DNA from: Escherichia phage FL18
DNA: 64,000 bases
Direction: 5' to 3' (one strand)
Sequence record: PP400780
Part shown: positions 27,684 to 32,112 of the stretch, piece by piece
Layout: every line of letters starts with the position of its first letter
Position numbering within the stretch: the first letter of the stretch is position 1
Translations under genes and position numbers: made by a program
Notes under the pieces: model-generated
The model's database searches: none
What the model was told of the DNA's origin: nothing
Seen by the model: the letters and a program-made list of their open reading frames with translations, nothing else

Positions 27684-29126
27684 GTGGTAGAAATTATTTT
27701 GTCTCATCTCGTATATGACCAGGCTTATTTTTCTAAGGTCTGGCCTTATATGGATTCTGAGTATTTTGAGCGTGGACCAGCAAAAAATGTCTTTAAAATT
27801 ATAAAGAGCCACGTTAACGAATATAATGCAATGCCATCTATCAATGCGTTAAAGGTGGCTTTAGATAACAGTTCTTTAACTGAAGCCGAATATAAAGGAA
27901 CTTCAGACCTAATTGAAAAATTGGCTGATACTCCTGAAGACCATGAATGGTTGGTTAAAGAAACTGAGAAATATGTCCAGCAAAAAGCGATGTATAATGC
28001 TACATCCAAAATCATTGAGATTCAGTCTAATGCTGAACTACCTCCAGAACAACGTAACAAGAAAATGCCTGACGTAGGAGCTATTCCTGATATTATGCGT
28101 CAAGCACTTTCAATTTCGTTCGATAGTTATGTTGGACATGACTGGATGGAAGACTACGAAGCACGCTGGCTTTCTTATCTAAATAAAGCGCGTAAGGTCC
28201 CGTTCAAATTAAACATTTTGAATAAAATCACTAAAGGTGGTGCTGAAACAGGTACACTAAACGTTTTAATGGCCGGTGTTAACGTTGGTAAATCTTTAGG
28301 CCTTTGTTCACTTGCTGCAGATTATCTTCAAACAGGTCATAATGTTCTTTATATTTCCATGGAAATGGCTGAAGAAGTTTGTGCTAAGCGTATAGATGCA
28401 AACATGCTTGACGTATCACTCGATGATATCGATGATGGTAACGTATCTTATGCTGAATATAAAGCCAAGATGGAAAAATGGCGTTCAAAAACAACATTAG
28501 GACGTTTAGTAGTTAAACAGTATCCTACTGGCGGAGCTAATGCTAATACATTCCGTGCATTGCTTAATGAGTTAAAACTTAAGAAGAACTTTGTGCCATC
28601 TGTAATCATGGTTGATTACTTAGGTATTTGTGGGTCTTGTCGTATCAGAGTTTACACTGAAAATAGCTACACATTAGTTAAAGCTATCGCAGAAGAACTT
28701 CGTGCATTAGCAGTAGAATCTGAAACAGTTCTATGGACTGCAGCTCAAGTAGGACGTGCAGCATGGGATGCTTCAGACATGAACATGAGTGATATCGCAG
28801 AATCAGCAGGTTTACCAGCAACGGCAGATTTCATGTTGGCTGTAATTGAAACCGAAGAACTTGCACAAGCCGAACAACAACTTATCAAACAAATCAAATC
28901 ACGATATGGTGATAAGAATAAGTGGAATAAATTCCTGATGGGTGTACGTAAAGGCAATCAGAAATGGGTTGAGATTGAGCAAGAAGGCATGAACACACCT
29001 AACACAGTAAATGAAAACGCAGGTGCTCAGATGCGTCAGGCAGAGGTGAATCGTACGGAACGCGTAGGTAAAGCCAAAGCAACACGTGCTGACCTAGATA
29101 GCTTAGCCAATGAGTTAAAATTTTAA
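27684..29126 (+). CDS. 41: replicative DNA helicase gp41 (DnaB-like)
   Basis: 480 aa, GTG start with AAGGAG RBS; Walker A MAGVNVGKS; close to T4 gp41. Confidence 0.95.
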   Translation: MVEIILSHLVYDQAYFSKVWPYMDSEYFERGPAKNVFKIIKSHVNEYNAMPSINALKVALDNSSLTEAEYKGTSDLIEKLADTPEDHEWLVKETEKYVQQKAMYNATSKIIEIQSNAELPPEQRNKKMPDVGAIPDIMRQALSISFDSYVGHDWMEDYEARWLSYLNKARKVPFKLNILNKITKGGAETGTLNVLMAGVNVGKSLGLCSLAADYLQTGHNVLYISMEMAEEVCAKRIDANMLDVSLDDIDDGNVSYAEYKAKMEKWRSKTTLGRLVVKQYPTGGANANTFRALLNELKLKKNFVPSVIMVDYLGICGSCRIRVYTENSYTLVKAIAEELRALAVESETVLWTAAQVGRAAWDASDMNMSDIAESAGLPATADFMLAVIETEELAQAEQQLIKQIKSRYGDKNKWNKFLMGVRKGNQKWVEIEQEGMNTPNTVNENAGAQMRQAEVNRTERVGKAKATRADLDSLANELKF

Positions 29127-29131
29127 TAAAA

Positions 29132-29155
29132 AGGAGACTTCGGTCTCCTTTCGGG
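29132..29155 (+). terminator. intrinsic terminator-like hairpin
   Basis: GGAGAC-TTCG-GTCTCC followed by TTTCGGGGTTT. Confidence 0.5.
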
Positions 29156-29156
29156 G

Positions 29157-29185
29157 TTTACATCTTCCTCTAGGCATGATATGAT
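29157..29185 (+). promoter_or_regulatory. T4-type early promoter
   Basis: TTTACA then 17 nt then TGATATGAT. Confidence 0.5.
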
Positions 29186-29214
29186 GTACTTACACAAACC
29201 AAGAGGAAAACATT

Positions 29215-29589
29215 ATGAATATGTCTCAAGCAATTTTTACTGCAATCACCGAAAACACAACTGTTGAAGTAGTTTCTCCGCTGGCAACCTACGTTATTCT
29301 TGCTCCTAAAACTATTGTATCTCGTATGGAAAACATGGGCAAACGTATCGTACAAATTGTTGGAGCTGGAAATCAAAAACTTGATTATCTACGAACCATC
29401 AAAGCTTATGAACATTTCCAACTCGAAAAAGGTTCTCCTATCCAGGTAGAACTCGTAAATGGTGATATCGTTCGAGCAATGTTCCATCATTTCTATGCAT
29501 TGAATGACCCATCTAAAGCGGTTCGTTTAATTGCATATGACGCAAACCAAAACGAAATCAACGCAGATGTATCTAAATTACGTTTTTAA
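29215..29589 (+). CDS. hypothetical protein (124 aa)
   Basis: ORF with AAGAGGAAAA RBS downstream of early promoter. Confidence 0.55.
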   Translation: MNMSQAIFTAITENTTVEVVSPLATYVILAPKTIVSRMENMGKRIVQIVGAGNQKLDYLRTIKAYEHFQLEKGSPIQVELVNGDIVRAMFHHFYALNDPSKAVRLIAYDANQNEINADVSKLRF

Positions 29590-29590
29590 G

Positions 29591-29619
29591 TTTACTTCTC
29601 CGGTAGTTGTGTTATTATA
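29591..29619 (+). promoter_or_regulatory. T4-type early promoter
   Basis: TTTACT then about 17 nt then TGTTATTAT. Confidence 0.45.
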
Positions 29620-29644
29620 GATCTATCAACTACTGGAGAACAAA

Positions 29645-29962
29645 ATGAAAACCATCGATTGTAAAGCAGAATTTAAGATTTTTTATCATGGTTCAAGTAG
29701 TTCAGCTAACATCGAAAACATGCTTTGTCCTCCTGAAGAAACAGGAGTTCTGTCTGAAACTGGACGTAAGAAAAACTTGGATCGTGTATTCTTTACTGAA
29801 GATATCGGTTTAGCAAAGATTTATGCAGGACGAGCAGCACGCTCTTATGGAGGTGAACCACGTCTCTATCGAGTAATTTCTCCGGTAGATGTAGTTCAAA
29901 TGAATGATACTAAAGGTGCTACAGTTTATCACGCTGAATGGGCATTTTGCGAGGAAATATGA
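29645..29962 (+). CDS. small protein with H-Y-E ADP-ribosyltransferase-like motifs (tentative)
   Basis: 105 aa; FYHGSSSSANIENM (H-G-S), VFFTEDIGLAKIYAG, YHAEWAF order resembles minimal PARP/DT-type ART core. Confidence 0.5.
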   Translation: MKTIDCKAEFKIFYHGSSSSANIENMLCPPEETGVLSETGRKKNLDRVFFTEDIGLAKIYAGRAARSYGGEPRLYRVISPVDVVQMNDTKGATVYHAEWAFCEEI

Positions 29963-30150
29963 GCAAATTAACTAAAGTTACTTTTATCGGTTGGTTTAAA
30001 AGCGGTGAGATGTTCACTAAAGATATCATGTTATCAGGTGATCGCGAAGAAATCGAGTGGGTTACGGTACAACTTGCTGAAGTGAACAATGCATTAGTTA
30101 AAGCATTTATTAATGACGAGAAAGTTTTTGAAGCTGATTTCAGAGGATAA
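29959..30150 (+). CDS. dmd: Dmd-like antitoxin (inhibitor of RnlA/LsoA)
   Basis: 63 aa; VTFIGWFKSGEMFTKDI...LAEVNNALVKAFINDEKV resembles T4 Dmd (61.5) as recalled. Confidence 0.65.
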   Translation: MSKLTKVTFIGWFKSGEMFTKDIMLSGDREEIEWVTVQLAEVNNALVKAFINDEKVFEADFRG

Positions 30151-30151
30151 T

Positions 30152-30364
30152 ATGTATTCAACTGTGTTTAAACCATCAGCATACGAATTTGCATCAACTA
30201 CACAATGGAAAGCTCTTATTCTGGAAGGATGGGAACTAATGATGGACTGTGAAGCATCTGAAAAGTTTCCACACGGCAAAGTGGACTTCGTTAAATTTGC
30301 TGTGCGTCCGACTAAACGACAGATTCGTCAAGAAAAACGCAAATTTCGAAAAAGTTTAAAATAG
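30152..30364 (+). CDS. small basic protein with VRPTKRQIR...RKSLK tail (61.4-like position)
   Basis: 70 aa; C-terminal motif shared with ORF 2242..2412 and with gp49 C-terminus (RKSLK). Confidence 0.5.
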   Translation: MYSTVFKPSAYEFASTTQWKALILEGWELMMDCEASEKFPHGKVDFVKFAVRPTKRQIRQEKRKFRKSLK

Positions 30365-30366
30365 CT

Positions 30367-30395
30367 GTTTACAAGCACCACATACTGTGTTACTA
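30367..30395 (+). promoter_or_regulatory. T4-type early promoter
   Basis: TTTACA then 17 nt then TGTTACTAT. Confidence 0.45.
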
Positions 30396-30424
30396 TATTT
30401 CTATCAACTACAGAGGAAATTGAA

Positions 30425-30793
30425 ATGAAAAAATTAATCGCTTTAGCAATGGTGTTCGGATTAACTGGATGTGGTGCTCATGGCTTTATCCCTAATAACG
30501 TTGGCCAACTGATTTACAATCCGAATGTTAAACAGTACAACCAACCTAAAGTTGAAGTGGAAGACCCGGTTACTGTAGGTAATCGAATGATTCAAGCTGA
30601 TGCCCATGCTCAACGTTATCGTGATTCTGATACCGTAGCGTTGTCAAAAGAACAACGCGTTAAAGAACATTGCTTACAGGCTACTGAAATCGCATTCATT
30701 CGCTATGTTGAAACAACTGGTAAAGAGCCTACCCAGAAACAAATCGCGAATAACTACGTCCAGTGTATTGAACGTTTAAACAAATTTAATTAA
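30425..30793 (+). CDS. lipoprotein
   Basis: 122 aa; signal peptide with lipobox LTGC. Confidence 0.65.
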   Translation: MKKLIALAMVFGLTGCGAHGFIPNNVGQLIYNPNVKQYNQPKVEVEDPVTVGNRMIQADAHAQRYRDSDTVALSKEQRVKEHCLQATEIAFIRYVETTGKEPTQKQIANNYVQCIERLNKFN

Positions 30794-30797
30794 TTGG

Positions 30798-30826
30798 TTT
30801 ACGCAAAAGTTAAAACAAGATACTAT
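30798..30826 (+). promoter_or_regulatory. T4-type early promoter
   Basis: TTTACG then 17 nt then GATACTAT. Confidence 0.45.
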
Positions 30827-30854
30827 AAACATAACAAATCAAGAGGAAATTAAC

Positions 30855-31103
30855 ATGGAATTATTCGTAGCTAGTTCAGTAGCAGTTTTAATCGCAGGTA
30901 TTGGTTCAATCATCATTTACATGTTGCCTTGGGTAATCGCACTTATTCGTGGCACAAAAAGCACAACAGCAATCTTCTTTGTATCTTTACTCTTTAACTG
31001 GACGATGATTGGTTGGATTGGAACTTTAATTTGGTCTATCGTTGCCGAAAAGAAATCTGCTCAGCAGCCTCAACAAGTAATTATTATTCGCGAAAAAGAA
31101 TAA
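30855..31103 (+). CDS. imm: superinfection immunity protein Imm-family membrane protein
   Basis: 82 aa, two TM helices; YMLPWVIALIRG...NWTMIGWIGTLIWSI fits the Imm family signature as I recall it. Confidence 0.55.
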   Translation: MELFVASSVAVLIAGIGSIIIYMLPWVIALIRGTKSTTAIFFVSLLFNWTMIGWIGTLIWSIVAEKKSAQQPQQVIIIREKE

Positions 31104-31108
31104 ACTTG

Positions 31109-31137
31109 TTTACATTATAGATGGACTATGGTATAGT
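31109..31137 (+). promoter_or_regulatory. T4-type early promoter
   Basis: TTTACA then 17 nt then TGGTATAGT within GGACTA...TAGTCC inverted repeat. Confidence 0.45.
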
Positions 31138-31166
31138 AGTCCTATCAAATCAACTAAGGAGTTAAA

Positions 31167-31460
31167 ATGAAAAAGTTATCATTGGCAGCAATCTTACTTG
31201 CAGTATCATGTGCACCGGCTCCAGTTACGGCAGGTTATGATAAAGACCTCTGTGAGTGGTCAATGACTGCAAATCAAGAAGATGTTGAACAACAAATCTT
31301 CTCTGATATCATGAACATCACTAAACGAGACCGTCCTAATATGGTTAATAAAGTTGTTGAACAACTTAAGTCTGGCGGTATCATGCAGTACAACTATGTT
31401 TTGTATTGTGACCCTAATTTCGATAACAAAGATATCGTAACCGAAATCACAGGTGAATAA
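31167..31460 (+). CDS. sp: spackle periplasmic protein Sp
   Basis: 97 aa; signal peptide then GYDKDLCEWSMTA...GGIMQYNYVLYCD closely resembles T4 Sp (61.3) as recalled. Confidence 0.8.
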   Translation: MKKLSLAAILLAVSCAPAPVTAGYDKDLCEWSMTANQEDVEQQIFSDIMNITKRDRPNMVNKVVEQLKSGGIMQYNYVLYCDPNFDNKDIVTEITGE

Positions 31461-31461
31461 T

Positions 31462-32112
31462 ATGATTTATTACATGCACAAAAACGCACCATTTAAATAT
31501 GGTAAATTTCCTAATGCACAATGTTATAATATAACGCCGAATGAAAATAATAACGGATACCATATTGGTGTAATTTTTGTAATTGTTAAAGATAACGAAA
31601 TCGTTGCCTGGGCAGATTTTAAAGGTACAACATATGATGTTAATCCTGTGCCTTTCACATATTACAATATAATGGATTTGGCATATGATTATAATTGGTT
31701 TACTCATGACACGTTGGCTCATATTGAAGGTGTAGGATTTGACATCTCTTATTCTAGCTATTCATTATGTCCTATGAGCCGAGCTCACGGTAAAGATGTA
31801 TCATATCTTTCAATTCGGAAACGTGTAAACTTCAAACGTAGTACAGAGTATGTTGGTGGACTCTTTGTTAAAGATAATAAAATAACCCGTATTAGTTATC
31901 CTTTAAGTGTAGGTCAAAAAGATGTTGATGTTGATTTAGACTTAACTGAAAGTAACATTAATCGTATTGCTTCTGTATATTTTGATATCGATGAAAAAAT
32001 TGTAGTGTGTGGATACGAATTACCACCTGAAGAAAAGGCTGAAACAATTGAAGTCGAATTAGAAATTTCTGTTGATGACCAAATATTTAACGCATTTATG
32101 AATCGAGGTTAA
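31462..32112 (+). CDS. hypothetical protein (61.2-like position)
   Basis: 216 aa from ATG overlapping sp stop. Confidence 0.6.
   Translation: MIYYMHKNAPFKYGKFPNAQCYNITPNENNNGYHIGVIFVIVKDNEIVAWADFKGTTYDVNPVPFTYYNIMDLAYDYNWFTHDTLAHIEGVGFDISYSSYSLCPMSRAHGKDVSYLSIRKRVNFKRSTEYVGGLFVKDNKITRISYPLSVGQKDVDVDLDLTESNINRIASVYFDIDEKIVVCGYELPPEEKAETIEVELEISVDDQIFNAFMNRG

Follow-up and report, generated by a model that had tools for sequence, protein, structure and literature searches.

The window considered here, a stretch of 64,000 nucleotides of Escherichia phage FL18 (sequence record PP400780; one strand, 5' to 3'), carries, directly upstream of the antitoxin gene dmd, a short open reading frame (ORF) which raises two questions: what sort of enzyme, if any, a protein of 105 residues may be, and whether its place next to dmd reflects a functional tie. 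The DNA is that of an RB69-type Mosigvirus, sharing 98.7% identity with RB69 over positions 29000-30500; the ORF is the homologue of RB69ORF040c, annotated in RB69 as 'hypothetical protein'. The two genes are the following:

29645..29962, plus strand: ORF starting with ATG, 105 amino acids; predicted stand-alone minimal ADP-ribosyltransferase (ART) domain of the Arr/KptA-like type
29959..30150, plus strand: dmd, antitoxin against RnlA/LsoA (Pfam Dmd, E 1.8e-21, and RB69 annotation); genomic context of the ART gene

The original prediction, made from the letters of the window, had quoted three motif sequences and read them as the core of an H-Y-E ART. All three are present, letter by letter, in the translation of the ORF, as FYHGSSSSANIENM (residues 13-26), VFFTEDIGLAKIYAG (residues 48-62) and YHAEWAFCEEI (residues 95-105), and both the coordinates and the identity of the adjacent dmd gene were confirmed. 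In our assessment, which combines sequence comparison with a structural model, the product of the ORF is probably an NAD+-dependent mono-ADP-ribosyltransferase which stands alone, is reduced to a core of about 95 residues and belongs to the Arr/KptA-like branch of the ART superfamily.

That the protein is an ART is already known, from names given in GenBank and from the work of Iyer et al. 2022. A protein of phage HX01, 99% identical to the one described here, bears the RefSeq name 'ADP-ribosyl transferase', and other homologues are recorded as 'putative ADP-ribosyl transferase' or 'rifampin ADP-ribosyl transferase', a label also carried by one homologue cluster; the pair formed by an ART and a Dmd gene in Escherichia, Shigella and Salmonella phages has been published (Iyer et al. 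2022, PMC9503650). Recognition of the enzyme is not new, and what remains of value lies in experiments. The present analysis adds its placement close to Arr and KptA rather than to PARP or diphtheria toxin, the rejection of the catalytic Glu originally proposed, the restriction of the dmd pairing to a few lineages and the finding that the gene is more conserved than the one for the helicase gp41.

Fold and nearest relatives of the encoded protein

The structural check of the original prediction consisted of an AlphaFold2 model and of Foldseek searches made with it: the model displays the split beta-sheet NAD-binding fold of ARTs, with two three-stranded units and interposed helices, so that the fold is present rather than absent. 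When the model was searched against the PDB, Arr ranked first (probability 0.99, E 0.027) and Tpt1 second; in the structural comparison these two came ahead of TreX, OspC3, PARP15, pertussis-like and cholera-like toxins, DarT and RES toxins. A search against viral models retrieved a phage protein named rifampin ADP-ribosyl transferase, 39% identical to the ART protein.

Sequence comparison leads in the same direction, by way of relatives. A PHROGs scan assigns the protein to a family of 'unknown function'. Its homologues closely resemble one another, the 149 closest clusters being more than 60% identical; among 1.84 billion cluster representatives, a profile search picked out 221 relatives, of which 121 reached E <= 1e-10. 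Two alignments were used: a narrow one, made of 34 T4-like ART proteins, and a broad one, A2, in which T4-like ART proteins and the corresponding domains of their relatives add up to 65 sequences, and to which all residue counts given below as fractions of 65 refer. Against the PDB, the A2 profile reaches Arr-ms (2HW2, 9IAF) at E 2.5e-4 and Arr-2 at E 3e-3, pairing H15, F49 and T51 with His19, Tyr49 and Thr51 of Arr-ms, respectively. The Pfam family Arr-ms, PF12120, is matched by 27 of the 65 members of A2, the best at 1.4e-10 (the window protein gives no match at E <= 1); three multidomain relatives score above its gathering threshold of 25 bits (26.9, 27.5 and 29.4), in exactly the region matched by the profile search. 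All these matches cover only about the first two-thirds of Arr. Alignment of the family to E. coli KptA by hhalign falls in the same register as the alignment to Arr, at a probability of 4.6%, which is not significant alone.

The assignment to the ARTs is based on the agreement between structure prediction and transitive sequence similarity. The order of motifs in the ORF exceeds chance, since homologues are widespread, the model has the ART fold and the family profile reaches Arr. That the protein has a His-class ART fold, distinct from the R-S-E class of T4 Alt, ModA and ModB, is thus borne out by the model, by the Arr match and by the first two motifs. Its attribution to the minimal PARP/diphtheria-toxin H-Y-E class is not: both by sequence and by structure, the closest proteins are Arr, an H-Y-D enzyme, and Tpt1/KptA.

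Neither of these relatives is a close replica. Arr (PF12120; PDB 2HW2, 9IAF, 9IBA) counts 143 residues against 105, about 40 more, and only its residues 13-82 can be aligned; of the triad His19-Tyr49-Asp84, the His is kept, the Tyr is replaced by Phe and the region of Asp84 cannot be aligned. Moreover, Arr is met in resistance contexts, whereas the ART described here is found in lytic T4-like phages and in injected polyvalent proteins. Tpt1/KptA is built of two lobes, and the ART protein corresponds to the C-terminal, NAD+-binding one only (KptA residues ~97-184), the whole N-terminal RNA-binding lobe being missing; in KptA, a second His occupies the position taken by Phe49. The N-terminal lobe of Tpt1 carries Arg-His-Arg, three of the four residues of its catalytic tetrad, Arg-His-Arg-Arg.

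The window protein is a solo version of the domain; many of its relatives are built into proteins of 272-3924 amino acids, at internal or C-terminal sites, beside the Pfam domains ART-PolyVal, LPD23, CHAP, GNAT, Toprim, PcfJ, lambda-type portal, 2H/Acb1-like and NUDIX. Polyvalent proteins of this sort are predicted to be packaged and injected along with the DNA (Iyer et al. 2017), and the domain, occurring within them, would therefore serve as an effector when invasion begins. It is not the same as ART-PolyVal (Tox-ART-HYD2, PF18760), which is likewise a His-class ART domain embedded in large injected effectors of phages and conjugative elements, and which has been described as H-Y-D, with the Asp on strand 5 (Iyer et al. 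2017): the two are separate families, found in tandem in three relatives (P0130, P0139 and P0162), each with its own model match. Two further arrangements, each seen in a single example, are a lambda-type portal followed by the ART domain and then by a 2H/Acb1-like domain (P0166), and a NUDIX domain placed immediately after the ART domain (P0162). By analogy with the steps downstream of KptA, 2H and NUDIX neighbours would fit the processing of ADP-ribose derivatives.

Conserved residues and the proposed reaction

Three motifs of the ORF are conserved throughout the family:

29687..29695, plus strand: codons of His15-Gly16-Ser17, first (NAD-binding) motif, on strand 1; H15 and G16 in 65/65, position 17 Thr (50) or Ser (15)
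29756..29776, plus strand: codons of Glu38-x-Gly-Arg41-Lys-Lys-Asn44, loop between strands 1 and 2, with a putative role; E38 in 64/65, R41 in 62/65
29789..29824, plus strand: codons from Phe49 to Tyr60, aromatic-x10-Tyr motif (VFFT of strand 2 and the next helix), from alignment and model

In the broad alignment H15, G16, A57 and Y60 are invariant, and E38, R41, F49, T51, G69, G70 and G91 nearly so; the narrow one features 25 invariant positions, H15, G16, E38, R41, F49, T51, Y60 and E103 among them. H15 is aligned with His19 of Arr-ms and with the HGT motif of E. coli KptA. F49 faces Tyr49 of Arr-ms and the second His of 'VHLS' in KptA: this position is Phe in 63/65 sequences and Tyr in the other 2, T51 is found in 63/65 and Y60 in all 65. 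In the model, residues 48-51 form the strand and 54-68 the helix. The spacing of the H-Y-E clade is therefore retained between F49 and Y60, with a first aromatic residue which is mostly Phe, able to stack but unable to form a hydrogen bond. E38, the sole acidic residue kept family-wide, lies in a loop aligned with E40-A-G-R43 of Arr-ms. The same loop may correspond to G-E124-R125 of KptA, where R125 is presumably the fourth residue of the Tpt1 catalytic tetrad.

The third position is a different matter. The His-Gly-Ser and aromatic-x10-Tyr motifs, as originally claimed, hold for the whole family, while the candidate catalytic Glu, placed within the C-terminal motif, does not. E98 is variable, being Glu in 7/65 sequences; E103 is invariant in the T4-like subfamily, yet Glu or Asp in only 26/65 overall, most other members having a hydrophobic residue, and it appears to be located on the last strand, as judged from the strand order of the model and from a manual alignment to E. 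coli KptA (NGVWLT/GATVYHA, followed by the terminal strand). Strand 5 begins at residues 92-94, occupied by A/T, T/S and V/I. The loop residue nearest to Asp84 of Arr, in a region which cannot be aligned, is D88, an Asp in 26/65. We read the family as His-class ARTs nearest to Arr and KptA, with a configuration that is roughly H-F-hydrophobic.

Homologues of the ART protein were found by tblastn in 609 phage records, at 60-100% identity, from phages of Escherichia (215), Klebsiella (116), Acinetobacter (68), Aeromonas (62) and other hosts. Compared with the replicative helicase gp41, identities to the window phage are as follows:

Dhakavirus VR5, both proteins from the same phage: ART 88.6%, gp41 67.5%
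Cronobacter phage leE, both proteins from the same phage: ART 71.4%, gp41 61.7%
Acinetobacter phages, compared at group level: ART about 70-74%, gp41 about 59%
Aeromonas phages, compared at group level: ART about 65%, gp41 about 45%

In T4-like phages, the ART is more conserved than the replicative helicase. For a small accessory gene, this degree of conservation suggests a target which is constrained and shared widely, and hardly a defence protein that evolves fast; with some 600 sequenced relatives, the ART would probably act on something fundamental in the host.

A few matches come from bacterial assemblies. Two assemblies of Patescibacteria (candidate phyla radiation) contain homologues of 143-148 amino acids (L014, 3902-4348; L015, 3923-4354), 48-51% identical and provided with an N-terminal extension of ~45 residues; the one in L014 adjoins an ORF resembling a transposase of the insertion sequence type, the neighbours in both loci being otherwise uninformative. 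Three further matches to the narrow T4-like profile, A1, lie on contigs of T4-like phage size or on fragmentary ones.

According to the reaction we propose, NAD+ would be bound via His15, with the nicotinamide stacked between Phe49 and Tyr60, and a single ADP-ribose would be moved to a target conserved across gammaproteobacterial hosts; the enzyme would act alone, and not as a toxin held in check by Dmd. Among the nearest relatives, Arr modifies a hydroxyl and KptA a phosphate. Because of this affinity, of the lack of a Glu on strand 5 and of the fusions to 2H and NUDIX domains, the preferred acceptor would be a non-protein oxygen nucleophile, such as a nucleotide or a phosphate end of RNA or DNA. 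A conserved host protein comes as a close second, AcrIF11 offering a precedent for a minimal ART acting on a protein.

Various points tell against the Arr/KptA-like assignment and the reaction drawn from it. Taken alone, the ART protein finds no match in Pfam (E <= 1), NCBIfam or PADLOC, and neither the protein nor profile A1 finds a PDB match by sequence; the putative link of the window protein to the ARTs is a transitive one, passing through its relatives and a predicted structure. The E-values obtained by Foldseek against the PDB are weak, 0.027 at best. No sequence alignment to Arr could be obtained for the C-terminal third, even after the addition of two divergent members, and the third catalytic position is therefore placed only by secondary structure and by the manual alignment to KptA; across the 65 sequences, no conserved acidic residue is found at the start of strand 5. 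The E38 loop is the least confident part of the model, residues 38-40 having a predicted local distance difference test score (pLDDT) below 50. The class of target is suggested by the relatives and by a few domain fusions, and recent horizontal gene exchange could be partly behind the high conservation of the gene. A literature search found no experimental study of the NAD binding, activity, toxicity or target of this ART.

The significance of such an enzyme stems from its setting. Host takeover by ADP-ribosylation is classically illustrated by T4-type phages, so far only through Alt, ModA and ModB, NAD+-dependent ARTs which act in the early reprogramming of the host, as predicted for the present one as well. 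These three belong to the R-S-E clade and none of them appears among the structural or sequence matches of the ART protein; the gene would thus add to the T4-type repertoire a predicted His-class, Arr/KptA-like enzyme, missing from T4 at this locus. Few ART domains are as small as this one of 105 residues, which is therefore handy for structural and mechanistic work. A more specific scheme, which we put forward tentatively and hold to be possible rather than probable, makes it a fourth ART of T-even-type phages which does not modify proteins: a stripped-down enzyme of the KptA/Arr type, made only in the first minutes of infection, which would act on a phosphate or hydroxyl at RNA or DNA ends or on a nucleotide, possibly a second messenger of host immunity, and which would be preserved with hardly any change in phages of Escherichia, Klebsiella, Acinetobacter, Aeromonas and Vibrio for the sake of a universal substrate.

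The alternative which survives best, although we consider it unlikely, is that of a protein-modifying H-Y-E enzyme, with Glu103 as the catalytic residue and RNA polymerase, a translation factor or a defence protein as its target, after the manner of AcrIF11 acting on Csy1. Invariance of E103 within the T4-like subfamily would suit such an enzyme; as described above, this residue is acidic in well under half of the broad alignment, and it falls on the terminal strand when KptA is aligned manually. Arr and Tpt1 outscore all protein-modifying ARTs in the structural comparison, and they alone are reached by sequence. A defence protein, in particular, is hard to reconcile with an identity of 65-70% among Escherichia, Acinetobacter and Aeromonas phages. 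AcrIF11 itself has no detectable sequence relationship to the ART protein, and it addresses a defence complex of sporadic distribution, whereas the ART is conserved across phages of very different hosts.

Relation to dmd and remaining alternatives

Position next to dmd suggests another alternative, already in the literature. Iyer et al. 2022 placed the p0068-family ART in the H-Y-[EDQ] clade and proposed that it forms, with Dmd, a toxin-antitoxin pair (PMC9503650). As gene order, the ART followed by dmd, and host range, phages of Escherichia, Shigella and Salmonella, agree with those of the locus studied here, the ORF is very probably the gene they meant. Their description and ours differ in two respects: the ART is here found nearest to Arr and KptA, and its pairing with dmd proves lineage-restricted.

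Under the published proposal the two genes would make up a phage type II toxin-antitoxin system, in which the ART, perhaps acting on RNA, would be a toxin neutralised by the binding of Dmd, as RnlA is. Gene order and host range fit this proposal. In the window, the ATG of dmd (29959) overlaps the TGA of the ART ORF in the sequence ATGA, an arrangement suggestive of translational coupling; the same gene order recurs in Dhakavirus VR5, where the two genes abut, and both genes are present together in many Mosigvirus records.

Among the loci examined, however, adjacency of the two genes is confined to Mosigvirus, where they overlap, and to Dhakavirus. T4, whose gp41 is 85% identical to that of the window phage, has gene 41 directly followed by dmd, and no ART at this locus. 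Conversely, the ART is found without Dmd in phages of Klebsiella, Acinetobacter, Aeromonas, Cronobacter and Proteus, as well as in Yersinia phage TG1 and Edwardsiella phage PEi20. In the last two the ART still follows gene 41, and the place of dmd as the overlapping downstream gene is taken by spackle in TG1 (L007, 1201-1808; Pfam T4_Spackle, 2.8e-16) and by an unassigned ORF of 117 amino acids in PEi20 (L008, 1225-1868); in the examined loci of the former five groups the ART lies at other sites, followed by unrelated ORFs, none of which encodes Dmd.

Counts of records agree with this picture. Dmd is found in 798 records, almost all of them from phages of Escherichia and its close relatives, and Klebsiella, Acinetobacter and Aeromonas are absent from the ten commonest organism names among them; 564 of these records are of the T4/T2 type, at less than 60% identity, against 215 Escherichia records for the ART. 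The pace of divergence between Mosigvirus and Dhakavirus is also very unequal for the two proteins: Dmd of the window phage is 62.7% identical to that of VR5, as opposed to 88.6% for the ART. ART and dmd are largely independently distributed, which disfavours an obligate toxin-antitoxin pair, and we regard this explanation as distinctly improbable, well behind an ART acting alone on a shared host target. The identity of the acceptor would decide whether Dmd has a second job as an antitoxin, as proposed in 2022, or is a mere neighbour.

In Cronobacter phage SemperBestia, a faint match to the ADP-ribose-binding domain WWE_2 (E 0.04, below threshold) was noticed two genes 3' of the ART (L010, 1681-2043). 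It has no counterpart at the equivalent site of a Klebsiella phage, and was dropped as a probable chance match.

We give still less credit to a protein which transfers ADP-ribose to no acceptor at all, being either an NAD+ glycohydrolase, by which the NAD pool would be depleted or reshaped, or a catalytically inactive decoy which binds NAD or ADP-ribose. Strict conservation of the NAD-contacting motifs would be unexpected in an inactive protein, NAD is generally required by phages of this group, and the closest relatives, Arr and KptA, are genuine transferases in spite of likewise lacking a Glu on strand 5.

Least credible of all is a true Arr, which would ADP-ribosylate rifamycin-type antibiotics and so protect the host RNA polymerase needed by the phage: although no solved protein other than Arr is reached by sequence, the homologue bears a rifampin-based name in some phage records and Arr-family ARTs do occur in some actinobacterial phages (Iyer et al.), the protein is shorter by some 40 residues, the part with Asp84 and the rest of the C-terminal region remain unaligned, the window protein fails Pfam Arr-ms outright, and a presence in injected polyvalent effectors does not suit a role in antibiotic resistance.

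Expression signals and neighbouring genes

Upstream of the ORF, the analysis located two overlapping signals which bear on the time of its expression:

29591..29618, plus strand: promoter-like site of the sigma-70/T4-early type, from a consensus scan (TTTACT-N16-TATTAT, with a G before the -35 side and TG before the -10)
29596..29640, plus strand: RNA hairpin of 14 bp, 29596-29609 pairing with 29627-29640; Shine-Dalgarno (SD) sequence in the 3' arm, -10 hexamer in the loop

The SD of the ART gene is GGAG, at 29635-29638, 6 nt before the ATG. Comparable promoter-like sites, read by eye, are found directly 5' of the homologue in four lineages, namely in Dhakavirus VR5 and in phages of Klebsiella, Acinetobacter and Aeromonas. 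An early promoter of its own would drive transcription of the ART gene during the first minutes after infection. The hairpin folds with a free energy of -20.9 kcal/mol (z -3.4), and none of 200 shuffled sequences was as stable; VR5 keeps only its outer 6 bp. Since the SD falls within the 3' arm, RNA reading through from gene 41 or ORF041c could hide the ribosome-binding site, whereas RNA started at the proximal promoter would not. Some T4 genes are known to have arrangements of hairpin and promoter of this kind. A terminator-like site inside the ORF, at 29730-29747, was discarded as a chance occurrence, being no better than those given by shuffled sequences.

The ART gene lies between ORF041c, found 3' of the helicase gene 41, and dmd; the gene for a DUF7279 protein (61.4) is the downstream neighbour in the ART-dmd stretch. 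ORF041c (29215-29589) encodes 124 amino acids, belongs to phrog_10668, to which no function is assigned, and has a promoter-like site of its own at 29157-29185; it is missing from this position in VR5, TG1, PEi20 and T4. More generally, the gene content of the interval from 41 to 61 varies among T4, RB69, VR5, TG1 and PEi20. In the window, the region from gene 41 to 61.2 (27684-32112) features a row of known or predicted conflict genes: the ART, dmd, the DUF7279 protein (61.4), imm.1, imm, sp and adfA. The last of these (31474-32112), the homologue of gp61.2 or anti-DarT factor A (AdfA), encodes Arg at residue 164, and hence the native RB69 allele, which has been reported not to neutralise DarT1, the escape allele being R164H (PMC11825919).

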